33,352 nt of DNA from Candidatus Velthaea sp. (GTDB lineage Bacteria > Vulcanimicrobiota > Vulcanimicrobiia > Vulcanimicrobiales > Vulcanimicrobiaceae): positions 1 through 33,352 of the forward strand of contig JBEKHC010000054.1 in the NCBI GenBank assembly GCA_050012475.1, written 5' to 3'. The notes beneath the pieces were generated by a model, which saw only the letters and a program-made list of their open reading frames with translations, had not been told where the DNA came from and did not search any database. Positions 17,642 through 28,503 of the stretch are shown one piece after another. The position numbers were made by a program, and so were the translations under genes. The first letter of the stretch is position 1. Every line of letters starts with the position of its first letter.

Positions 17642-18187
17642 ATGAAGTACGCGAGCGCGGCGCTTATTCTCACCCTGTTGCTCTGGGCGCCGGCGACGGC
17701 CGGCTGGAAAGGTCCGACGATGTACGACGGAACGCCCGACTTGAAATTGACCGCCGAGATGGTCGCCGCCGGCGGCGGTCCGGCACATTTCGATTCGAAG
17801 AAGCTCGTCGGCGTCATGGCGGGCAAAGGCGCGCCCGCGGCGTTGGCCTATTTGACGAAAACCTACGGTGCGGCCGACGTCGATGGGTTTTTTCGGACGT
17901 TCACCTACGCGGTCAACGATTCGCTCAAATACGCGACGGCCAAAAAAATCGCCCTGCCGGCCGTGACCGTGCCCAGCGGCGCGGTGCTCACGCAACAACT
18001 CTACAAAGCGGGTACCCTGCCTAACGGGCAATACGATCCCGGCTACATGCTCGAGAAGCTGGTCTCGCACCCGATCCACATGTGGGTGATGTGGGATATC
18101 AACCGCCAGCCCGACCTCGGCGCGAAGACGGACGAGACCTTCCACATCATCCTGACTGATGCGATGCATAAACTGGCGAATCATTAG
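17642..18187 (+). CDS. Exported hypothetical protein, predicted helical, His-containing C-terminus
   Basis: GAGGAGG before ATG 17642; signal peptide MKYASAALILTLLLWAPATA; GC3-biased codons. Confidence 0.75.
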   Translation: MKYASAALILTLLLWAPATAGWKGPTMYDGTPDLKLTAEMVAAGGGPAHFDSKKLVGVMAGKGAPAALAYLTKTYGAADVDGFFRTFTYAVNDSLKYATAKKIALPAVTVPSGAVLTQQLYKAGTLPNGQYDPGYMLEKLVSHPIHMWVMWDINRQPDLGAKTDETFHIILTDAMHKLANH

Positions 18188-18671
18188 CCTGATCGCGGCG
18201 ATCGCCGGCGGCGCGGGGAGACCCGGCGCCGCCGACGTTGTCGTGGGTACGCCGCCGCACGTCACGGTCGTCGACGACGCCGCGGTCGGCAAAGCGCTGC
18301 TGGGGCGATTCGACTATGTCGGCAGCTGGCAGCACGTTCGGGGGAAGAACGACGGCCGAACCAACGGAACGAGCACGCGCAGCACCCGGACCGGCGACGT
18401 CGCGATCTTTCGCTTTACCGGAACGCGCGTGCGGATCTACGGCGTGCTCGGGCCCAGCGGCGGCCGGGCCGGAATCGCGCTCGACGAAGCGTCGACGGGT
18501 GGCCGGCCGATCGAATTCTACGCGCCGCACCTGCGAACGCACGCGCTGGTGTACCAGAGTCCGGTGCTGCCCTGGGGCGTTCACACCGTTTCGATCGCCG
18601 TCTGGGGAACGCGCGACGTGCACGGCCGCTACTATTACGTGAACATCGACGGAGCCGAGTTCGAGTCGTGA
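18159..18671 (+). CDS. Exported protein, galactose-binding-like beta-sandwich
   Basis: N-terminal hydrophobic stretch; pattern YVGSW...GD.A.F.F.GT.V..YG..GP..G.A.I.LD...H.V.I resembles jelly-roll carbohydrate-binding modules. Confidence 0.6.
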   Translation: MRCINWRIISLIAAIAGGAGRPGAADVVVGTPPHVTVVDDAAVGKALLGRFDYVGSWQHVRGKNDGRTNGTSTRSTRTGDVAIFRFTGTRVRIYGVLGPSGGRAGIALDEASTGGRPIEFYAPHLRTHALVYQSPVLPWGVHTVSIAVWGTRDVHGRYYYVNIDGAEFES

Positions 18672-18728: not shown

Positions 18729-20618
18729 ATGCCAAACACCGCTCGCGCCGCATATATCCCGTTTCCGTTCGTCGCCATCGTCGCACAGGAAGAGCCAAAG
18801 CTTGCGCTGACGCTCGCGGCGATCAACCCGCGCGTCGGCGGCGTCCTCCTGACGGGCCCCAAAGGGACTGGCAAAACCACGCTGGTGCGTGCCGCCGGAG
18901 AATTACTGCCGGTCCTCGAGCGCTCGACGTGCGCCTACGGCTGCGACCCGCACGGCTCGAACCTGTGCGCGGCATGCGCCGACCGCCGCGACCGCGCGGA
19001 AAAAGTGCCGTCGCGCAAATCGCGGGGCGAGATCGTCGAGCTGCCGGCCAATGCGCAGCTCGACGACGTCGTGGGCGCGGTCGACCTGCGCGCCGCGCTC
19101 GAGCGCAGCAGCGTCGCTTTCCGGCCGGGGCTGCTCGCGGCTGCGAACCGCAACATCCTCTATGTGGACGAGATCAATCTCCTCGCCGACGTCGTCGTCG
19201 ACGCGCTGCTCGACGCCGCAGCGCTTGGCGTCGTGCACGTCAAACGCGGTCAGCACGCGATCGACTACCCTTCGCGCTTCACGCTGATCGGCACGATGAA
19301 TCCCGAGGAAGGCGAGCTGCGCCCGCAGATCACCGACCGGATCGGATTGCGCGTGTTCATCGCCGCCGAGAACGATCGCGCGCAGCGATTGGAAATCTAC
19401 CGGCGCAACGCACGGTTCGCGCGCGATCCGCACGGCTTTGCCGCGCACTACAGCAAGGCAACAGCCAACTATCGCGCGCGTTTGGCGCGGGCGATCAAAC
19501 TCTTACCGGACGTCGGCGTGAGCGAAAATGCCGAACGCGTCGCGATCGAGGGCGTGACCCGGTTGGGGATCGACAGCCACCGCACCGAGATCGTTACCCT
19601 CGAAGCCGCGGCGGCGCTTGCGGCCTGGGAAGGCCGGCGCGAAGCAACCGACGAGGATGTCGCGCGGGTCTTTCCGCTCGCCGCGCGGCTGCGCCGTTCG
19701 CGGCTCAAAGTCGAGGCGCTGTCCGAACATCTCGCCGAAGATGCCGCCATTCAAAACGCCCTCGACCAAACGTTCGCGTCGGACGACGAGTCGGCGGCCG
19801 AAGACGATCCGCCGCCGCCGTCAGGCTCGGCGACGATCGTCTCGCCCGAACTCACGCAGCGCCCGGTGCGTAAAAAGCAGCCGCAGACGGCCGCGGAAGG
19901 CCAGCCGATCGCGACCCGGCCGCTGCAGAACGGGCGGCTCGACATCGGCGCGACGATCTTGGATCGCACGGTCGCAACCAAAGCCGGCCTCGCACCCGAA
20001 CCGCAAGAACGCGTCGAAGTCGCGACGCCGCCGCGCCTCAACATTCTCGTCGTCGACGCCTCGCTGTCGACCAAAGATGCCGCCGAATACGTCCGCGCCG
20101 CGTCGCGCGAGCTGTTGCGGCCGATCTACACCGAGCGCGAACGCGCCGCGCTGGTATCGTGCTGGGGCGCCCGCGCGGAGGTCGTCGTCGATGAAAATAC
20201 CGGCCGCAACGTCGATCTGGTCGCATCGCGGTTGCTCGAGCTCGAGCCCGGAAATGTAAAGACATTGACACCGCTGGCCGGCGCGCTCGAACACGTGCGG
20301 CGCATCGCCGACCGCTTCCGGCGCGCGAATTCGGGTGCGCTGGTCGAAGTCGCGATCTTCTCCGACGGTCGCGCGAACGTACCGCTCGGCGATGAAAGCG
20401 CGGTCGCCGCGGCCCTCGCAGCGGGCGATAGCAAGGCGCTCATGGAGGTTGCCGCCGAGCAGTGCCGGGCGTTAGCGGCAACGATCGCGGGTCGCGCGAC
20501 GATGACCTTCATCAATCTCGATGCGTACGAGGCCTATCCGCTGATGCGCGAACTCGCCGCGATCGCCAAGGGCCGTTACTTCGCGCTAACGGATGTTGTT
20601 GCGAAAATCCTTCCTTGA
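18729..20618 (+). CDS. bchD: Class I (Mg/Co) chelatase ATPase subunit, BchI-like AAA+ domain plus vWA domain (BchD architecture)
   Basis: FPFVAIVAQE, Walker A GPKGTGKT, PGLLAAANRNILYVDEINLL, GTMNPEEGELRPQITDR; acidic/Pro linker DDESAAEDDPPPPS; vWA VVDASLS...TPLA...SDGRANVPL. Confidence 0.75.
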   Translation: MPNTARAAYIPFPFVAIVAQEEPKLALTLAAINPRVGGVLLTGPKGTGKTTLVRAAGELLPVLERSTCAYGCDPHGSNLCAACADRRDRAEKVPSRKSRGEIVELPANAQLDDVVGAVDLRAALERSSVAFRPGLLAAANRNILYVDEINLLADVVVDALLDAAALGVVHVKRGQHAIDYPSRFTLIGTMNPEEGELRPQITDRIGLRVFIAAENDRAQRLEIYRRNARFARDPHGFAAHYSKATANYRARLARAIKLLPDVGVSENAERVAIEGVTRLGIDSHRTEIVTLEAAAALAAWEGRREATDEDVARVFPLAARLRRSRLKVEALSEHLAEDAAIQNALDQTFASDDESAAEDDPPPPSGSATIVSPELTQRPVRKKQPQTAAEGQPIATRPLQNGRLDIGATILDRTVATKAGLAPEPQERVEVATPPRLNILVVDASLSTKDAAEYVRAASRELLRPIYTERERAALVSCWGARAEVVVDENTGRNVDLVASRLLELEPGNVKTLTPLAGALEHVRRIADRFRRANSGALVEVAIFSDGRANVPLGDESAVAAALAAGDSKALMEVAAEQCRALAATIAGRATMTFINLDAYEAYPLMRELAAIAKGRYFALTDVVAKILP

Positions 20619-20640: not shown

Positions 20641-20704
20641 GCCGGCAGTGGATGCCGGTCGCGTTCACCGCTCGCGCGGTGAGAGAAAGGATCATTGCTA
20701 CCGT

Positions 20705-21061
20705 ATGGCAGTGAAACGTACCGCAAAGAAGGCCGGCGCCAAGAAGACGGCCCGCAAGAAGACATCGACGCGCAAATCGACGAGCGCGAAGAAGACCGTC
20801 CGCAAAGCCGCTCCGCGGAAAAAGACCGCCGCCAAGAAGACGGCCGCGAAAAAGACCGGCGCCCGCAAGAAGACTTCCGTCCGCAAGTCGTCGAGCGCCA
20901 AAAAGACCGTTCGGAAGAAAGCCGCCGGATCGCGCAAAAAGACCGCGGCACGTAAGCCGGCCGCGCGCAAAACCACGCGCAAGAAGGCCGGCGTCAAGAA
21001 GTCGGTTCGCAAAACGGCCGGTCGCAAAGCTAGTCCGCGCAAGGCCAAAGCCGCGGTTTAA
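20705..21061 (+). CDS. Histone H1-like Lys/Ala/Arg-rich protein (118 aa)
   Basis: MAVKRTAKKAGAKKTARKK...; repeated (A/R)KKT units; no acidic or aromatic residues; upstream GAAAGGA; followed by a terminator. Confidence 0.85.
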   Translation: MAVKRTAKKAGAKKTARKKTSTRKSTSAKKTVRKAAPRKKTAAKKTAAKKTGARKKTSVRKSSSAKKTVRKKAAGSRKKTAARKPAARKTTRKKAGVKKSVRKTAGRKASPRKAKAAV

Positions 21062-21081
21062 TACCGGCGCGGTGAAACCGG

Positions 21082-21116
21082 GCGAGTCGCGGTAACGCAC
21101 GACTCGCTTTTTTTTT
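21082..21116 (+). terminator. Intrinsic terminator
   Basis: GCGAGTCG-N10-CGACTCGC followed by T9. Confidence 0.9.
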
Positions 21117-21321
21117 CAAGTGAGAGCGGCGTTCTCGAGCGGTGCGATGTCGTGGACACGTCGTTACCGCACGGTCCTCTTGGATCGCCGGAGCAACGAC
21201 GCGGCTTGCACGCGCAGCCGGGTGCGGGTGCGCCGAAGGACGGCGGGTCCGGGTCGGCTTGGCCGCAGCCCCCACAGCGGCGGGGGGCCGGCGACGATGG
21301 CTGCGCCGTGGGCCCGGTAGG

Positions 21322-21364
21322 GGTGACCCCTATCACCGAGGCGGGCGGCTCGGCAGCGTAGCGT
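21322..21364 (+). promoter_or_regulatory. CRP/FNR-like palindrome plus -10 element (bchH promoter)
   Basis: GGTGA-CCCCTA-TCACC (21322-21337), 21 bp, TAGCGT (21359-21364); centre is -41.5 and hexamer is -12..-7 from ATG 21371; same module upstream of bchL. Confidence 0.75.
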
Positions 21365-21370
21365 CAGACT

Positions 21371-24300
21371 ATGAAGGTCGTCGGCTATTCGTCTTGGGCC
21401 CCGGATGAGCGCGCGAACGCGATGCGCCTTGCCTTTCGCGGACTGCGCGAGAAGACCGGGCAGCCCTGGGAGCTGGAGCACTTCGGCGCGTCCGATTTCA
21501 ACGATCCCGCCGCCTTGGGCCGGCTGCGGACGGCGATCAAGGGCGCCGACGTCGTGATCGGCTGGCAGTCGATGACCAACGACACGGTCGAGCGGATGGC
21601 CTTGCTCATGACCGACATGGATCGCGCCGGAGAGCTCGACCACGTTAAATTCTTATGGTACGACATCCCCGATCCGCGCTTGCAGCAATTGATGTTCAAG
21701 ACGCTCGGCTTCCGTTTCGACATGAACAAGTCGAACCCGATGCGCGAGCTGTCGATGGCGATCAAACGCTATCAAGCCAAATCCAAACACGAAGCAATCG
21801 ACGAGTTATGGGAAGCCCGCGAAGGCTTCCTGGGCATGCAGAAAATGGTCGGGGCGGCGCCGCTCATGGCCAAGATCATGAAGAAGCCGGTCTTCAAATC
21901 GCTGGTCATGATCGGGTACTGGAACAACCGCAGCGTCAAGAACATCGAGAACATGTTCTTGTATCTCATGAAGCACTTCATGAACAACGCCTATAAGAAG
22001 GACGTCGAGCCGCCGGAAAAAGTCGAGAACGAAGGCATCTACCATCCTGCCCACAAGGGCTTGTTCGCAACGCCCGAGGCCTACTTGGCCTGGTATGAGC
22101 CGTGGTACCAAAAGACCTACGGCCGCAAAGCGTGGGAGCGCGTGGGCTTCATCACCCACGACCTCTTTCTGGTCGAATGGAATCATCCGACGCTCAACGC
22201 GGCCATCGCGGCCTGGGAGCAGCGCGGCGTCGGCGTGATCTGCTCGATGACGGCGGTCTTCAACGCCCACATCGTTTCGCGCCGGCACCTGCTGACGACC
22301 AAGACCAAAACACCGCTCGTCGGCGCCGTCTATCACAACGTTCCGCTGTATTTGGCCGGCTCGATGTTCGCGGGTTCGCCCGACGCGACGATCGACCTCA
22401 TCCACGACCTGGGTGATCCCCGGGTGTATACCTCGCCGGTCAACGCCGCGATGTCCAAGGCCGATCTGGCCGCCTCGAAATTCGGCGTCGCCTCGCTGGA
22501 ATATATCGGCAACGTCGTTACGCCCGAGACCGAGGGCATTCAGCCGTTTCCACCGATCTGCTCGCGCGAGCAGACAAGCGTCGACGTCAGCGCGCTCGAG
22601 CCGATCCCCGACCGGGTCGAGCTGATCGCGGAAACGTCGACCCGGTGGCTCAAGCTTCGCACGCTCGAGAACGCGTCGAAAAAGATTGCGATGTTCGTCT
22701 ACAACTTCCCGCCGGGCCCGGGAAACGTTGGCGTCGCGCTGTTTCTCGATGTCGCCGCGTCGGTGCGCTCGGTGCTCGAAGCGCTGCGCGACGACGGCTA
22801 CGCCGTCGGGGAGATCGACGACAGCGACGCCGCGATGTCGCAAAAACTGCAAAGCATGTACGCCGGATACGAGACGGTCGGCGCGGTCTCGAGCGCCGAA
22901 ATCCGCGATTGGGTTCACGATCTGCCCGTTGCGCATGAATCCCTGTTCTACGAGGTCTGGGGTCAGCCGCCCGCGACGATCCCGATCAAAGGCTTGCGCT
23001 ACGGCAACGTCCTGGTGCTGCTGCAAGACATGCGCGGGATGGAAGACCTGACCGCCGTTCACGACAAGAATGCGCCGCCGTCGCCGTGGCTGTTGGCTTC
23101 GTACCGTTACGCCACCCGGCGCTTCAATGCCGATGCGATGATCCATGTCGGCACGCACGGGCTCGTCGAGTGGTCCAAGGGCAAAGAGTGGTGTCCGGCC
23201 GCCGGCGACTATCCCGAGTTCCTGATCGACCGCACGCCGCACGCGTATATTTTCAACATCGTCGATCCGGTTGAAGCCTCGATCGCCCGGCGGCGTTCGT
23301 ACGCTACGATCCTCTCCCACTTGTGTCCGCCGCTGGTCGCAGTCGAAGGCAGCGAGGACCTGCGCAATCTGCACCGGCTGGTGCACGATTACTACAATAC
23401 CAATTCGGGCGAGCTCGAAAAGCGCGGCGACATCGCCGCCGAGATTCACGAGGTCATCGACCGCTCGGGCCTGCGCATCGAATCGCCGGGTGAAACGTAC
23501 GCCGACGAGCGCGCTTTCGTTTCCCGCGTCCACGACGAACTCGTTTCACTCGAAGGCGAATTCTCGCCCGCCGGGCAGCACGTGTTCGGCCGCGATTTGA
23601 GCGCGGACGACCGCCGTTCGACCTTCGAGGCCTGCCTGGAATTCTGCGACGTCGATTTGTACCGCTTGATCGCACACTGTTACGGAATCGATTACGACCG
23701 GATCAAACGCAATCCCGAAGGCCGGGATGCGGACGGCACCTATTATCACGATCTGCTCGACGGCCTGCGCGACGCGGGGCGCGAGATCATTGCGGCCGAA
23801 GTGCTGCGCGGCGGATCGCTCGGCCGGTCCGCGATGCTGGGCATTTTGCAGACGCGCCCGATCGGCTCCTACAAACTTGTGAAGAGCCCGTATGACGCCC
23901 AGGAACTCGCGGCGTTCGTCGAACGGGCGCGCGAGCTCTACGCGCAATTAGGCAGCGTCGGCACCCACGAACGCCAAGGGTTGCTGCGCGCGCTCTCGGG
24001 CCGCTACCTCGAGCCGTCGCTGGGCGGAGAGGTCGTCGGCGATTGGAACGTCCTCCCGACCGGCCGCAACATGGCCTCCACCGACGTGCGGATGCTGCCG
24101 CGCGAAGCCGCGCAACGGTATGGCAAGCGGACCGTCGAGCAAATTCTCGAAGCCGCCGTCGCCGAACGCGGCCACTATCCAGCCGCCGTCGGTATCGTGC
24201 TGTGGGGCTCCGAGGTGCTCGAAAGCGACGGCGTCGGCATCGCTCAAGCGCTCGACCTCATGGGCGCGCGCGTCCGCAAGGACCGCTTCAATCGCGCCGA

Positions 24301-25270
24301 AACGGTCGAACTCATCTCGCTCGATGAGCTCGGCCGCCCGCGCATCGACATCCTCGGCAACACCTCGGTCGTTTTCAAGAACACGTTTCCGGGCGCGATC
24401 CGGCTCATCCACGAGGCCGCCGAACTTGCGGCCGCCGCCGACGAACCGTACGAGTGGAACTACGTGCGCCGGCACACCGACGAGCTCATCGCGAACGGGA
24501 TCGCGCCGCATTTAGCGCGCGCCCGCTGCTTCGGGATGGGCGAAGATGCGTTCATGGGCCAAGTCGGCGCAATGCTCGACACCGGCAAGTTCGGCGACTT
24601 CACCGACATCGGCAATGCGTGGATGAGCGACAACAGCAACGCCTACCTTCCGCAATACCAGTCGATCATCGTCGAACCGGCCGCCGACGTCCAGCGGTAC
24701 CTGGTCGGCAAGGTCGAGGTGATCCAGCAGCCGCTCGTGCAGATGGCGGCCGGCGGACCGGTCAAAGAAGACATGTTCGCCTCGTTTACGTCGGCGTTCG
24801 GCGCGGCGAAGCGCACGATGGGTCACGAGGACACGATGATTCTGGTGAGTGATTTGACGCGCCGCGAGCCCAAGGTCCGCAACTTCCGCAACGTGGTGGT
24901 CAACGGAGTGCTCACGCGTTTCCATTCGCAAGCTTGGCGCGACCGGATGATGCAGCACGGCTATTCGGGCGTGATGGAGTTCGGCGACATCTTCAAAGCG
25001 ATGCGCTCGACCGAAGCGGCGCTTGGCGCGACGATCACGCCGGAGCTCTGGAAGCGAACCGTCGAGGTCACGCTGACCGAGTGGGATCGCATTTCCGATG
25101 CCAATCCGCACAAGACGCGCGACCTGGGCGAGATCTTGCTCGACACTCAGCGGCGCGGGATGTGGGAAGACCGCGACCTCGAGCAACAGCTCAAAGACAA
25201 GCTCAACGAACTCGATGCCGATGTCGAATTGGCGACGTATCGTCGTCAATTGACGAAAAACGACGCCTGA
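21371..25270 (+). CDS. bchH: Divergent magnesium chelatase subunit H (BchH/CobN family)
   Basis: 1299 aa; GIYHP, RWLKLR..KKIA.FVYNFPPGPGNVG..LDV (BchH-type), HVGTHGLVE, EASIARRRSYA, VLPTGRN, VLWG, LGRPRID, HGYSGV. Confidence 0.75.
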   Translation: MKVVGYSSWAPDERANAMRLAFRGLREKTGQPWELEHFGASDFNDPAALGRLRTAIKGADVVIGWQSMTNDTVERMALLMTDMDRAGELDHVKFLWYDIPDPRLQQLMFKTLGFRFDMNKSNPMRELSMAIKRYQAKSKHEAIDELWEAREGFLGMQKMVGAAPLMAKIMKKPVFKSLVMIGYWNNRSVKNIENMFLYLMKHFMNNAYKKDVEPPEKVENEGIYHPAHKGLFATPEAYLAWYEPWYQKTYGRKAWERVGFITHDLFLVEWNHPTLNAAIAAWEQRGVGVICSMTAVFNAHIVSRRHLLTTKTKTPLVGAVYHNVPLYLAGSMFAGSPDATIDLIHDLGDPRVYTSPVNAAMSKADLAASKFGVASLEYIGNVVTPETEGIQPFPPICSREQTSVDVSALEPIPDRVELIAETSTRWLKLRTLENASKKIAMFVYNFPPGPGNVGVALFLDVAASVRSVLEALRDDGYAVGEIDDSDAAMSQKLQSMYAGYETVGAVSSAEIRDWVHDLPVAHESLFYEVWGQPPATIPIKGLRYGNVLVLLQDMRGMEDLTAVHDKNAPPSPWLLASYRYATRRFNADAMIHVGTHGLVEWSKGKEWCPAAGDYPEFLIDRTPHAYIFNIVDPVEASIARRRSYATILSHLCPPLVAVEGSEDLRNLHRLVHDYYNTNSGELEKRGDIAAEIHEVIDRSGLRIESPGETYADERAFVSRVHDELVSLEGEFSPAGQHVFGRDLSADDRRSTFEACLEFCDVDLYRLIAHCYGIDYDRIKRNPEGRDADGTYYHDLLDGLRDAGREIIAAEVLRGGSLGRSAMLGILQTRPIGSYKLVKSPYDAQELAAFVERARELYAQLGSVGTHERQGLLRALSGRYLEPSLGGEVVGDWNVLPTGRNMASTDVRMLPREAAQRYGKRTVEQILEAAVAERGHYPAAVGIVLWGSEVLESDGVGIAQALDLMGARVRKDRFNRAETVELISLDELGRPRIDILGNTSVVFKNTFPGAIRLIHEAAELAAAADEPYEWNYVRRHTDELIANGIAPHLARARCFGMGEDAFMGQVGAMLDTGKFGDFTDIGNAWMSDNSNAYLPQYQSIIVEPAADVQRYLVGKVEVIQQPLVQMAAGGPVKEDMFASFTSAFGAAKRTMGHEDTMILVSDLTRREPKVRNFRNVVVNGVLTRFHSQAWRDRMMQHGYSGVMEFGDIFKAMRSTEAALGATITPELWKRTVEVTLTEWDRISDANPHKTRDLGEILLDTQRRGMWEDRDLEQQLKDKLNELDADVELATYRRQLTKNDA

Positions 25271-25356
25271 CCCGAACCGTCTGCTATCCCGGGCGTACGC
25301 GTACCCGGAAAGGGCCGAACGTGGCGGGCACTGTCGCCGCGAACTTCGGGCGCGGG

Positions 25357-26619
25357 TTAAATCGCGCGCAGCCGCGGGTGCGCGGCATAGGTCCAAAGCG
25401 TGCAGAGCGCTGCGACGGCTCCGCCGGCGATGAGCGCTTCGCGCAAACTCAGCACCGACGCCAGCGAACCGAGCAGCAGCGTGCCGCCGGGCACGAAGCC
25501 GAGCACGATCATCGAGTAGATCGAGATGACGCGGCCGCGCATGTCGTCGGGTGCCAGCGTCTGCAGCATGATGTTCGATGAGCCCAAAAACGTCAACGTT
25601 CCCACGCCCATCGCGCCGAGCACGGCGAGCGCGATCGGCATCGACGCCGTGCTGCCCAAACCTATCGCGCCCAACGCCATGACGAGCGCCGACAGCGCCC
25701 AGAGCGCAGAGCGGCGCTCCGGGACAAACGCCGCGGTCGTGAGCGCGCCGCCCATCGCTCCGATGCCTGTGGCCGCCATGAGCACGCCCAGCCCGCGCGC
25801 ATCGGTGTCGAGCACGTGGGCGGCATACGCCGGCAGCAAAAAATTGTAGGGCCGAACGAGCAGCGAGTTGACGATCAGCAACACGATGACCCAGCGCAGC
25901 ACGGGATGCCGGGCGATGAACGTGATGCCGTCGCGAATCGACGCCCACACGTTTTCACGCCGCACGGAACTTGCCGGCACTGGCTGCATGAACGCAAGCA
26001 CGACGACCACCGCGAGCGTGAGCACGGCGTTGGCGAACATGCACGGCGCGACGCCGAGGCCGGCGATGATCAGGCCCGCGATCGGCGGACCGACGACGGC
26101 GGGCGCGTTGAACGCCAAGCTATTGAGTCCGATCGCGTTACTCACGAACTCACGCGGGACCAGAATGGGCACCCAACTCTGGCGCGCCGGAGCGTCGAAA
26201 GACTGCGTCGCCGCCAGCAATGCGCTCAAGAGCATCAACAGTCCGATCGTCGCGCTTCCGCCGGCGATGACGACGGCCAGCACGAGCGACAGCGCGGCCT
26301 GTGACGCGTTGGTCACGACCAGCACGCGCCGGCGCGGAAAACGATCGGCCACCACACCGGCAAACGGCGAAAAAACCAAGACCGGAAGTGCCCGCGACGC
26401 GCCGATGAGTCCGACATAGAAGGCGGCGAGATGAGCGTTCGGTGCCAGATGGACGACTTCATATCCGAGCGCCGTGAACTGCATCCAGGTGCCCAGGTTG
26501 CTGATCAACAGACCGCCCCACAACAGCCGGAAATCAAAGAAGCGCAGCGCACCCAAGAAGCCCGGACGGCGGCCGGAAAAGCGCGGTTCGGTGGCGCCGC
26601 TTTCCGGCGGCGCTCTCAT
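25357..26619 (-). CDS. MFS transporter (DHA3/EntS-like)
   Basis: FRLLWGGLLISNLGTWMQ, motif A GVVADRFPRRR, FDAPARQS, PDDMRGRV; ATGA overlap at 26616-26619. Confidence 0.9.
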   Translation of the reverse strand: MRAPPESGATEPRFSGRRPGFLGALRFFDFRLLWGGLLISNLGTWMQFTALGYEVVHLAPNAHLAAFYVGLIGASRALPVLVFSPFAGVVADRFPRRRVLVVTNASQAALSLVLAVVIAGGSATIGLLMLLSALLAATQSFDAPARQSWVPILVPREFVSNAIGLNSLAFNAPAVVGPPIAGLIIAGLGVAPCMFANAVLTLAVVVVLAFMQPVPASSVRRENVWASIRDGITFIARHPVLRWVIVLLIVNSLLVRPYNFLLPAYAAHVLDTDARGLGVLMAATGIGAMGGALTTAAFVPERRSALWALSALVMALGAIGLGSTASMPIALAVLGAMGVGTLTFLGSSNIMLQTLAPDDMRGRVISIYSMIVLGFVPGGTLLLGSLASVLSLREALIAGGAVAALCTLWTYAAHPRLRAI

Positions 26620-27236
26620 CCCGGCTTGGCCGCGCTCACCGCGCAGGCGATCACCTCGGCCGCACCCTCGATGCCGTAGCGGGCCGTATCGACGGCCAGA
26701 TCGTAGTTGCGCACGTCGCCCCACGCCATCCGATATTGGTCGCGCGCATACGCGCGACGCGCTTCGTCGATGCGCGCGATCTCGCTGCGCGCAGCGCTTT
26801 CGGAGCAGCCAAACGACGCGCTGACATACGCGATGCGCCAAACCAGCGGCGCATACACGAAAACCCGCACGAGGTCGGGGCGCGCACCCAAAATAGCGTT
26901 CCCCAAGCGACCCAGGATGACGGCGTCACCTCCCGCCGCAGCGTCGCGGATCACCCGCTCGGCTTCGCGGCGGTACGCGCCCACGAGATTCTCCTCCGGA
27001 AGAGCGGCCGGTTGCGCGATCTCGGGGACGGCGCCGGTAAGGCCGGCCAGTAGGCGCTCGCCAAAGCCCGGCACCCGGTTTTCGATGCTCTCGACAACGT
27101 CGGCCGGCATGCCCAGCCGGGCCGCAATCAGCCGCGGCAGTTCCTCATCGACGAGTCGATACTGCAAGATCGCCGCGAGCGTACGGGCTACCGCTTGCGC
27201 GGCCGCGCCGTACTCTCGCGAAACCGTGACGATCAG
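26616..27236 (-). CDS. Cytidylate kinase-like family protein
   Basis: IVTVSREYGAA, VILGR, RVFVYAP, DEARRAY, YDLAVDT; most plausible start is CTG at 27236 (uncertain). Confidence 0.75.
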   Translation of the reverse strand: MIVTVSREYGAAAQAVARTLAAILQYRLVDEELPRLIAARLGMPADVVESIENRVPGFGERLLAGLTGAVPEIAQPAALPEENLVGAYRREAERVIRDAAAGGDAVILGRLGNAILGARPDLVRVFVYAPLVWRIAYVSASFGCSESAARSEIARIDEARRAYARDQYRMAWGDVRNYDLAVDTARYGIEGAAEVIACAVSAAKPG

Positions 27237-27370
27237 AACCCGAAGATTCCAACCTTTCCAACCCGGTCGATCCGATCGAGCAGGGGCGGCAGGACGAAGA
27301 ACGCGCCGACCGAGCCGATTGCCATTGCGATCAGGATGACGAGAACGGGGATGTAGACGGGTGAATCCAA
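27233..27370 (-). CDS. Small single-pass membrane protein (45 aa)
   Basis: MDSPVYIPVLVILIAMAIGSVGAFFVLPPLLDRIDRVGKVGIFGF; TTG start 6 nt after AAAGAGG; stop overlaps the next gene's start. Confidence 0.6.
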   Translation of the reverse strand: MDSPVYIPVLVILIAMAIGSVGAFFVLPPLLDRIDRVGKVGIFGF

Positions 27371-27474
27371 GGTATGCCTCTTTCTCGATGACCGGGAGCA
27401 AGCCGCTACTTGCGACGTTCTCTTCGTCACGCGTCGTGCAAAGCCCGACTCGCTTTTGAGGGTGATTTCCCCCC

Positions 27475-27517
27475 GGTGATGGTTATCACCGTTCGGGACG
27501 GGGTCCCGGAGTAGCGT
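27475..27517 (+). promoter_or_regulatory. CRP/FNR-like palindrome plus -10 element (bchL promoter)
   Basis: GGTGA-TGGTTA-TCACC (27475-27490), 21 bp, TAGCGT (27512-27517); extra GGTGAT half-site at 27461-27466. Confidence 0.75.
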
Positions 27518-27572
27518 TCTTTCCAAGGCCGGCAGCGGCGCGCTGGGGCCAGTGGTGGCGTCCGGAGGTAGT

Positions 27573-28409
27573 ATGCTCAAGCTTGCGGTGTACGGCAAGG
27601 GCGGGATCGGCAAAAGTACCTTTTCTTCGAATCTCTCGGCCGCGTTCGGCCGGATGGGCAAGAAGACGATCCAGGTAGGCTGCGATCCCAAGCACGATTC
27701 GACGTTTACCCTCACCGGAAATCTCATCCCGACCGTGGTCGAAGTGCTCTCTTCATACAAATTCAAGACCGATGAGATCGAGCGCGACGAGATCATCTTC
27801 AAAGGCAAATACGAGGTCGATTGCGTCGAAGCCGGCGGACCGCCCGCGGGCGCCGGCTGCGGCGGATACGTGGTCGGCGAGACGGTGAAATTGCTCGAGA
27901 AATTCGGCGTCTACAAAGACTACGAAATCATGGTTTTCGACGTGTTGGGCGACGTCGTATGCGGCGGTTTCTCAGCGCCGCTGCAGCATTCCGAGCAAGT
28001 CATCATCGTCGCCACGAACGACTTCGACTCGATCTTCGCGGCGAATCGCATCGCGACCGCGATCGGCATCAAGCAGAAGACGGGCGGCGGATTGCTCGCC
28101 GGACTTGTGGCGAACCGCGCCAGCGACGCGGAACTCGTGGGTCCGTACGCTGCCCGCATCGGCTCGGTCTGCCTGACGACGATCCCGGAAAACGACGGCG
28201 TGCGCAAGAGCCGGCTCACGGCACAAACCGTCTTCGAACAGGATCCCACCGGCTTTATCGGCCAGCCCTGGACAGATCTTGCCGTTCGGTTGCTCGCGGG
28301 TGTGCCGCTAACCGTTCCGACACCAATTCCCGAGCGCGAATTGTTCGCTCAGCTTGGCGCCGACTACGTCCGCGCCGCCGATATCCCGGCTCCCGCGATG
28401 GCGGTCTGA
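27573..28409 (+). CDS. bchL: Dark-operative protochlorophyllide reductase iron-sulfur ATP-binding protein
   Basis: [64 protein letters not shown] are BchL/ChlL-type; GGAGG at 27564-27568. Confidence 0.92.
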
Positions 28410-28423
28410 TCGACGGAAGCGCA

Positions 28424-28461
28424 AAGCCGGCGAACCGAATGGATCGCCGGCTTCTTTTCTT
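28424..28461 (+). terminator. Intrinsic terminator after bchL
   Basis: AAGCCGGCGA-N10-TCGCCGGCTT followed by CTTTTCTT. Confidence 0.75.
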
Positions 28462-28503
28462 GGCTGCTGCTAATGGTCGCGGCTTTGCGGGGGGCTCCGG
28501 CGA

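Follow-up and report, generated by a model that had tools for sequence, protein, structure and literature searches.

Upstream of bchH and of bchL, on a 33,352-nucleotide (nt) contig of Candidatus Velthaea sp. (GenBank JBEKHC010000054.1; the whole contig is hereafter called the window), lies the same operator-promoter module, composed of a GTGA-type palindrome and a -10 box behind it. This is a real, conserved cis-regulatory module, which in the genome of the window precedes five bacteriochlorophyll (bch) operons, namely bchH, bchL, bchM-acsF, bchN-bchB and bchF-C-X-Y-Z. Sequence comparison indicates that it is most likely the class II site of a new member of a CRP/FNR subfamily, and the candidate regulator is Reg1, encoded next to the reaction-centre (puf) genes.

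The genome of the window (G000, in which the window is contig C54) is a phototrophic Eremiobacterota/Vulcanimicrobiota metagenome-assembled genome of 5.36 Mb in 204 contigs (64% G+C; completeness 93.8%, contamination 5.3%), and Eremiobacterota is the phylum of chlorophototrophs recognised most recently. The comparison set comprised 61 genomes of the same class, with BchL scoring over the NCBIfam cut-off in 10 (G000, G001, G002, G003, G007, G017, G020, G025, G027 and G033, from seven genera overall) and below it in 51, the latter including six unpublished genomes (G022, G024, G031, G032, G048 and G059). Public genome contigs contributed 28 loci with Reg1 orthologs (57-96% identity), whose titles name Vulcanimicrobiota/Eremiobacterota, Candidatus Velthaea, Candidatus Lustribacter and a few otherwise labelled bins.

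Both modules were read from the sequence where the initial annotation had placed them, and comprise the following features.

21322-21337, plus strand: bchH operator, GGTGACCCCTATCACC, with the palindrome GGTGAC-CCCT-ATCACC and the core GTGA-N6-TCAC at 21323-21336
21359-21364, plus strand: bchH -10 box TAGCGT, 21 nt past the 16-nt box and 22 nt past the core palindrome
21371-25270, plus strand: bchH, magnesium-chelatase H subunit, a 1299-amino-acid (aa) open reading frame (ORF), Pfam CobN-Mg_chel 705 bits
27475-27490, plus strand: bchL operator, GGTGATGGTTATCACC, with the palindrome GGTGAT-GGTT-ATCACC
27512-27517, plus strand: bchL -10 box TAGCGT, 22 nt past the core palindrome
27573-28409, plus strand: bchL, iron protein of the dark-operative protochlorophyllide oxidoreductase (DPOR), NCBIfam DPOR_bchL 352.5 bits, passing the cut-off of 345

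The best NCBIfam match of 21371-25270 is BchH, at 594 bits and thus below its cut-off of 829. At the two sites GGTGA, TATCACCG and GTAGCGT have the same sequence and the same spacing, as had been described, with 19 unrelated nt in between; no further copy occurs in the window at up to one mismatch. The bare 10-base pattern gave at least two matches in 22 of 100 shuffles of the window, so that the window alone is not significant and a chance resemblance of the two sites could be argued from it.

Evidence beyond the window comes from the genome as a whole, in which the extended motif GGTGAYNNNTATCACCG has three exact copies, the two window sites and one at C88:8303, with the same geometry as the window modules and the -10 box TACGAT. 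A weight matrix covering box and -10 hexamer, built from eleven sites and controlled on reversed sequence, scored these three sites at 38.1, 34.5 (bchH) and 31.1 (bchL) bits, compared with 20.2 bits for the runner-up, which lies in coding sequence, and a maximum of 14.3 bits in the control. This first matrix and the TANNNT patterns miss the bchM site of G000, with its 23-nt spacer, and all bchN sites, with their cAnnAT hexamer, which were found by other routes. The sites outside the window are as follows.

C88:8304: bchF-C-X-Y-Z site, the third exact extended match
C52:551: bchM-acsF site, 23-nt spacer, -10 box TACCAT
C97:12967: bchN-bchB site, a perfect palindrome, -10 box GACAAT

Exact GTGA-N6-TCAC cores number 52 in G000, of which five have the GTGAY..RTCAC form with G/C flanks as well as a -10 box 22-23 nt away; these five are the only bch promoters among the 52.

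The scan of genome and relatives that had been proposed for the motif was run with strict patterns, controlled by the reversed pattern. With a 22-nt spacer it gave 27 matches in eight relatives against 2 in the control, and with a 23-nt spacer 10 matches in ten genomes against 1. Directly downstream of 36 of these 37 matches (controls total 3) lie bch genes, namely bchF (6), bchC (2), bchH (8), bchL (8), bchM (9) and bchX (3), while the 37th precedes an unassigned 78-aa ORF in G025. Five BchM and two BchC-position ORFs were assigned by Pfam, and the remaining targets by N-terminal identity to G000 proteins or by coordinates. When upstream DNA missed by the strict pattern is included, an exact core precedes bchH in 10 of 10 phototroph genomes and bchL likewise in 10 of 10, and the box with the bchN-type -10 hexamer is found at all nine bchN loci with upstream DNA, the tenth being cut by a contig end.

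From 66 non-redundant sites the consensus sG-GTGA-Y-N4-R-TCAC-CG was obtained, with box and -10 hexamer common to all and the intervening sequence not. The box first described as GGTGA-N6-TCACC therefore stands in its core, conserved as GTGAY-N4-RTCAC, with the outer G/C pair weaker. The distance to the -10 box is likewise conserved, though not as the single value first given, being 22 nt in 47 sites and one nucleotide longer in the other 19. T-A-n-n-n-T occurs at this distance in all sites save the bchN class with cAnnAT, and the commonest hexamers are TACGAT, TAGCGT and TAGCAT. Fixed blocks with unrelated spacers, before bchH, bchL, bchM, bchN and bchF-C across seven genera, bear out the initial view of motif conservation as opposed to duplication. 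Chance similarity, a recent promoter duplication or a leader RNA hairpin is thus hardly credible as the origin of the module: the fixed blocks, the gene assignments of the strict matches and above all the conservation across genera speak against these origins, as do half-sites that are kept in sequence without compensatory change and the position of the bchH box upstream of the likely transcript. The description of the targets as scattered did not hold, since in relatives with long contigs they lie within ~72-136 kb, loosely clustered.

Further copies of the module were seen in relatives. The three closest, G001, G002 and G003, have an additional Reg1-type module between bchC and bchX, and G000 has no such internal promoter, its bchC running straight into bchX. 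A GTGATAGCCATCACGG module ending in GACAAT is present in two identical copies in G001, at its C7:33405 and C19:19647.

The motif was initially held to be distinct from the PpsR/CrtJ box, which reads TGT-N12-ACA. The GTGA-N6-TCAC core agrees with this, and no PpsR/CrtJ was found in G000 at 93.8% completeness, the best score against TIGR02040 being 35 bits compared with a cut-off of 275.4. A CRP/FNR-family reader had been proposed instead, and the third exact copy of the motif adjoins a gene for such a protein.

C88:7443-8123: Reg1, 226-aa CRP/FNR protein, the gene right after pufC and 180 bp before the bchF box

The gene order on C88 is pufB, pufA, pufL, pufM, pufC, Reg1, box, bchF, bchC, bchX, bchY, bchZ, with pufB, pufA, pufL and BchC identified by NCBIfam, PufC and BchF by Pfam and NCBIfam, and PufM, BchX, BchY and BchZ from their translations. 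The stretch from Reg1 to the bchF box contains a G+C-rich hairpin, which scored as terminator-like on the minus strand only. Reg1 starts at the base right after the pufC stop in G000; in 19 of 27 loci a tetra-haem PufC ORF ends at most 1 nt from this start, and in one more 5 nt from it, which makes Reg1 the final puf-operon gene in most genomes.

Reg1 has a C-terminal Crp-type winged helix-turn-helix (HTH) domain (Pfam HTH_Crp_2 73.9 bits, cut-off 27; Crp 39.3 bits, cut-off 21) and an N-terminal beta-roll sensor domain of the cNMP-binding-like type (Pfam cNMP_binding 33.7 bits, cut-off 27.5), and its residues 28-204 align with NtcA chains. These are its closest solved structures (E = 1e-20), followed by CooA, mycobacterial Crp and E. 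coli CAP. It falls under every NCBIfam equivalog cut-off of the family (CRP, NtcA, FnrL, FixK, LdrP and PtrA), the best being NtcA at 76.6 compared with 244.95 bits. A single Cys, C51, is conserved across 23 orthologs, and there is no FNR-type N-terminal cluster. In the same 23 orthologs the recognition helix TARETVSR, with its CRP-like RETVSR, is invariant, and HMMER aligns it to TRVTVTR of NtcA. The available text on the NtcA-DNA structure reports base contacts by R186, V187, T190 and R191 and describes Val187, which is Glu in CRP, as an important discriminator, V187E abolishing NtcA box binding (PMC11850224). Having the CRP-type Arg-Glu...Arg set, Reg1 therefore fits GTGA.

The distribution of Reg1 follows that of phototrophy. 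Orthologs (68-96% identity) are present in eight of the nine BchL-bearing relatives, hence with G000 in nine of ten BchL-bearing genomes, and in none of the 51 genomes without BchL, where the best matches are ~26-34% identical. On public contigs, identity past the 28 Reg1 loci drops to at most 32%, in Rubrobacteraceae. In all nine Reg1 loci of the first search, GTGA-N6-TCAC, a 22-nt spacer and TAnnnT were found downstream of Reg1 with unrelated intervening sequence, and the module lies at most 700 bp downstream of Reg1 in 25 of the 28 public loci and farther downstream in the other three. The helix, the adjoining motif copy and the co-occurrence with phototrophy together favour Reg1 as the CRP/FNR-family protein that would bind the boxes, and the initial proposal of such an activator is thereby supported for the most part.

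Several observations weigh against this assignment. The CRP-family ORFs of G000 number eight, three of them with an R-E-x-x-x-R helix, including a paralog on C127 with the CRP-like RETVNR, and a copy 82% identical to Reg1 lies at C19:35155-35835 in a non-photosynthetic setting among housekeeping genes. G020 has boxes, yet no Reg1 ortholog was found in it. Copies of the bare core are no more frequent in G000 than base composition predicts, at 52 compared with ~59 expected (a rough estimate), and a relaxed pattern also occurs in non-phototrophs (79 matches in 51 genomes, compared with 49 in the ten phototrophs); GTGA-type sites are therefore generic in the class. Within the window, the Mg-chelatase D/I-like gene upstream of bchH has no box, and C54 holds no other matrix match of at least 12 bits, so this gene is left out of the proposed regulon.

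The boxes could instead be read by another CRP-family protein, such as the widely kept RETVNR paralog of the C127 type, Reg2 (described below) or the C19 copy, with the targets of Reg1 lying elsewhere. The other CRP-family ORFs of G000, the boxes of G020 and GTGAY-N4-RTCAC modules in non-phototrophs without Reg1 speak for this possibility. We nevertheless regard it as rather unlikely, given that Reg1 adjoins the box in most loci and tracks phototrophy, that most non-phototrophs have paralogs of ~28% identity, and that G020 is only 80% complete. Reg2 has the helix of NtcA, which fits GTA..TAC and not GTGA..TCAC, in keeping with the loss of NtcA box binding on V187E in the portion of PMC11850224 cited above. 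With Reg1 retained as the preferred reader, competition or co-regulation by CRP paralogs at the bch boxes may still occur.

Two side observations concern these other proteins and sites. The C19 copy of Reg1 has an unchanged helix with one change right behind it, and none was seen in the eight Reg1-bearing relatives; it may be a true paralog or the product of a strain mixture (contamination 5.3%). The non-phototrophs G047/G056 and G051/G053/G057 share conserved GTGAY-N4-RTCAC modules, for example GGTCACTTCGTTACATCTCATAT, which suggests another CRP-type regulon, read by the widely kept paralog.

The geometry of the module bears on the direction of control. At class II promoters of CRP the activator site is centred at -41.5, in E. 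coli with the sequence TGTGA-N6-TCACA. Here the distance from the core centre to the first -10 base is 7 + 22 nt, and a start 7 nt past the hexamer would put the centre at -41.5; on this basis the distance would fit -41.5 in the 47 sites with a 22-nt spacer and -42.5 in the 19 with a 23-nt spacer, in line with the class II spacing initially suggested. Canonical NtcA-activated promoters also have their site at -41.5, according to the accessible part of PMC3898017. No conserved -35-like hexamer is present 16-18 nt from the -10 box in the 66 sites, where these positions read CCGnnn, and a scan of one locus (L003) revealed no sigma-70-like -35/-10 pair around the bchF site.

These observations also bear on the possibility that Reg1 is a repressor at the same operator, covering the -35 region in the manner of PpsR/CrtJ. 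The box overlaps the position where a -35 element would sit, and purple-bacterial pigment genes are described in the available text of PMC12654162 as controlled mainly by repression. The missing -35-like hexamer and the fixed 22-23 nt, equal to the geometry of class II CRP and NtcA promoters (PMC3898017, in the part available), argue against it, and a puf-encoded repressor would stop pigment synthesis just as the apoproteins are made; we consider repression improbable.

The reading that we consider fairly probable is activation by Reg1. In this mechanism, a Reg1 dimer would bind the 14-bp GTGAY-N4-RTCAC box 22-23 bp before the -10 box, its R-E-x-x-S-R helix reading GTGA as CRP does, and with the site centred at -41.5 would recruit RNA polymerase, as a class II activator, to bch promoters lacking such an element at -35. 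Since Reg1 closes the pufBALMC operon, whose promoter has an NtcA-type box (described below), expression of the reaction-centre genes would also provide the pigment-pathway activator, coupling the two.

In this geometry bchH takes a special place. Its ATG lies 6 nt past the -10 box in nine genomes and 7 nt past it in one, is always ATG and has no Shine-Dalgarno sequence; because of this the bchH mRNA is likely leaderless and would begin at its own ATG. Indeed, the start predicted near 21371 in the initial annotation is the BchH ATG itself, while the BchL ATG had to be corrected to 27573. The other targets have leaders with GGAGG; in bchL this sequence lies at 27564-27568, ahead of the ATG, and given the predicted start near 27524 the leader would be ~49 nt. 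Metatranscriptome contigs (two runs, shares 0.06-0.08) gave 11 short pieces over 20900-28500, some inside bchH, and contigs cannot show starts. One of them, belonging to a relative (21197-21493, with 6 other letters and 10 gaps), extends over the predicted start of bchH.

The initial annotation had suggested looking for the motif upstream of puf and other photosynthesis genes besides bch; at puf a different box is found, and a second regulator, Reg2, appears to be involved.

C20:1-996 (minus strand) joined to C52:2-184: Reg2, CRP-family protein of ~361 aa, split by a contig break in G000
C88:4087-4129: puf promoter with the box GTAG-N6-CTAC (= GTA-N8-TAC, the NtcA type), 23 nt ahead of TATAGT

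Reg2 lies directly upstream of bchM in all seven loci examined. Its N-terminal part of ~150 aa has no Pfam family and no usable protein-atlas match, its invariant C-x-C lies at 222/224 in the beta-roll and does not form an N-terminal cluster, and its helix NRVTVTR equals that of NtcA (RVTVTR). Its best NCBIfam scores of 70-72 bits are under the cut-offs, and it is not an NtcA equivalog. The GTAG pattern was found in 19 of the 28 public loci, in 17 of them at the expected place of the puf promoter; in six genomes checked it is followed by an LH-beta-like ORF. The simplest assignment on sequence grounds is of Reg1 to the bch boxes and of Reg2 to the puf box, which Reg2 would fit by its helix.

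A cascade in which Reg2 acts on the operon of puf and Reg1, and Reg1 in turn on bch, is accordingly proposed as likely for this genus, to which the claim is confined. Some findings tell against it. The GTAG pattern is not enriched genome-wide (17 matches compared with 22 in the reversed control), so that support for this box consists of positional conservation only. A search of seven loci found neither type of box ahead of Reg2. In G033, where Reg1 stands apart from puf, it is preceded at 291 nt by a GTAG box with TACTAT; in three other loci with an unfused Reg1 no GTAG box was found before it. In one locus Reg2 directly precedes Reg1.

A possible but doubtful extension is a PpsR-free two-tier cascade, in which Reg2, as an NtcA-like sensor with its unassigned N-terminal domain and C-x-C, would fire puf and Reg1 would switch on the five bch operons, apoprotein transcription thereby licensing pigment synthesis, with a tetrapyrrole or redox pocket of Reg1 closing a feedback loop. 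The invariant Cys51, the N-terminal MDxFWSLP and the W-S-D-R...G-Y-W stretch could form this sensing pocket. In cultured Vulcanimicrobium alpinus, light raises bchM 2.90-fold and pufL 1.86-fold, as given in the accessible part of PMC9758169; this is compatible with a cascade and is no test of it.

Other observations around Reg2 and its presumed box include a GTAG-type box with a 24-nt spacer at C103:8781 in G000, and GTAG boxes before a small membrane protein (~88-108 aa, YYYSGYPGPPTWFW) in G007, G017 and G033, with two copies in G007 and G033. Near C20 ~1100 in G000, the stretch separating Reg2 from a divergent, helicase-like gene holds the palindrome CGAAC-GTAC-GTTCG, which recurs in G001-G002 and, with a single base difference, in G025. 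This palindrome is similar to the Gram-positive-type LexA box.

The remaining features of the window near the modules are the following.

18729-20618, plus strand: Mg-chelatase D/I-like ATPase gene upstream of bchH, Pfam Mg_chelatase and AAA_lid_2, NCBIfam matches below cut-offs
Between bchH and bchL, minus strand: MFS transporter gene and cytidylate-kinase-like gene

The D/I-like gene is flanked by ORFs at 18159-18671 (plus strand) and 20698-21048 (minus strand), with coding-like GC3 (G+C at third codon positions) and no Pfam or NCBIfam family; the latter ORF sits between this gene and the bchH box, on the opposite strand.

A literature search, lying largely outside subscription journals, found no link of Eremiobacterota or Vulcanimicrobium to a Crp/Fnr regulator, operator or promoter. 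The available text of PMC9758169 and PMC6664022 contains no mention of Crp, Fnr, PpsR or a promoter, and the supplementary gene tables of PMC9758169 list bchM and pufC with no Crp/Fnr or 'transcriptional regulator' entry, which neither confirms nor excludes Reg1 and Reg2 in V. alpinus. The kind of mechanism is known; the literature searched has no description of the regulator clade, its regulon or its link to the reaction-centre operon. The analysis offers a concrete, testable answer to how dispersed pigment genes could be co-ordinated without PpsR, consisting of the operator, the five promoters that it would serve, Reg1 as candidate activator and Reg2 as the regulator proposed for the reaction centre, all of them conserved across genera. 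Reg1 and Reg2 form a natural paralog pair that appears to owe its difference in DNA specificity to the classic Glu/Val helix position, and a leaderless mRNA is predicted for the first committed enzyme of the pathway.

Among known systems, E. coli CRP shares with Reg1 the families of its two-domain fold, the helix R-E-T-V-x-R and the GTGA-N6-TCAC core, and its class II promoters share the 14-bp site 22 nt before the -10 box and the lack of a -35 element. Unlike CRP, Reg1 scores ~48 bits to CRP chains and 55 compared with the cut-off of 266 of the CRP equivalog, its box has a flanking G in place of T (GGTGA), retention of the cAMP pocket is not evident, and its proposed regulon consists of five pigment operons, whereas that of CRP is global. 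NtcA, the 2-oxoglutarate sensor of cyanobacteria that binds GTA-N8-TAC at -41.5, is the best match of both Reg1 and Reg2 among solved structures and NCBIfam families, and is alike in the predicted promoter geometry, in the identical RVTVTR helix of Reg2 and in the GTA-N8-TAC of the puf box. However, Reg1 and Reg2 reach 70-77 bits against a cut-off of 245 and neither is an NtcA equivalog; Reg1 has Glu at the discriminating Val of NtcA, Reg2 has an extra N-terminal domain of ~150 aa, and the proposed targets are photosynthesis genes in place of nitrogen genes.

FnrL and CrpK of Rhodobacter sphaeroides are CRP/FNR-family proteins with direct control of photosynthesis genes, as stated in the available part of PMC4263372. 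They thus resemble Reg1 in family membership and in the photosynthesis genes proposed as its targets. FnrL differs in sensing oxygen through an Fe-S centre and in governing a broad anaerobic regulon, whereas Reg1 has one conserved Cys and a narrow proposed pigment regulon, and scores 36 bits against the FnrL cut-off of 300. LdrP of Thermus thermophilus is a CRP/FNR activator of light-induced carotenoid genes, acting under LitR and with its activity set by its own expression. LdrP and Reg1 would both be CRP-family activators dedicated to pigment genes within a cascade; the two differ in phylum, in score (28-34 bits against a cut-off of 300), in that LdrP controls carotenoids and not bacteriochlorophyll, and in that a B12 photoreceptor acts upstream of LdrP. 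In purple bacteria and Gemmatimonas the functional counterpart is PpsR/CrtJ (with AerR), a single DNA-binding protein that uses a recurring palindrome to co-ordinate the promoters of bch, crt and antenna genes; it is a repressor, belongs to the PAS-HTH family and has a different box.

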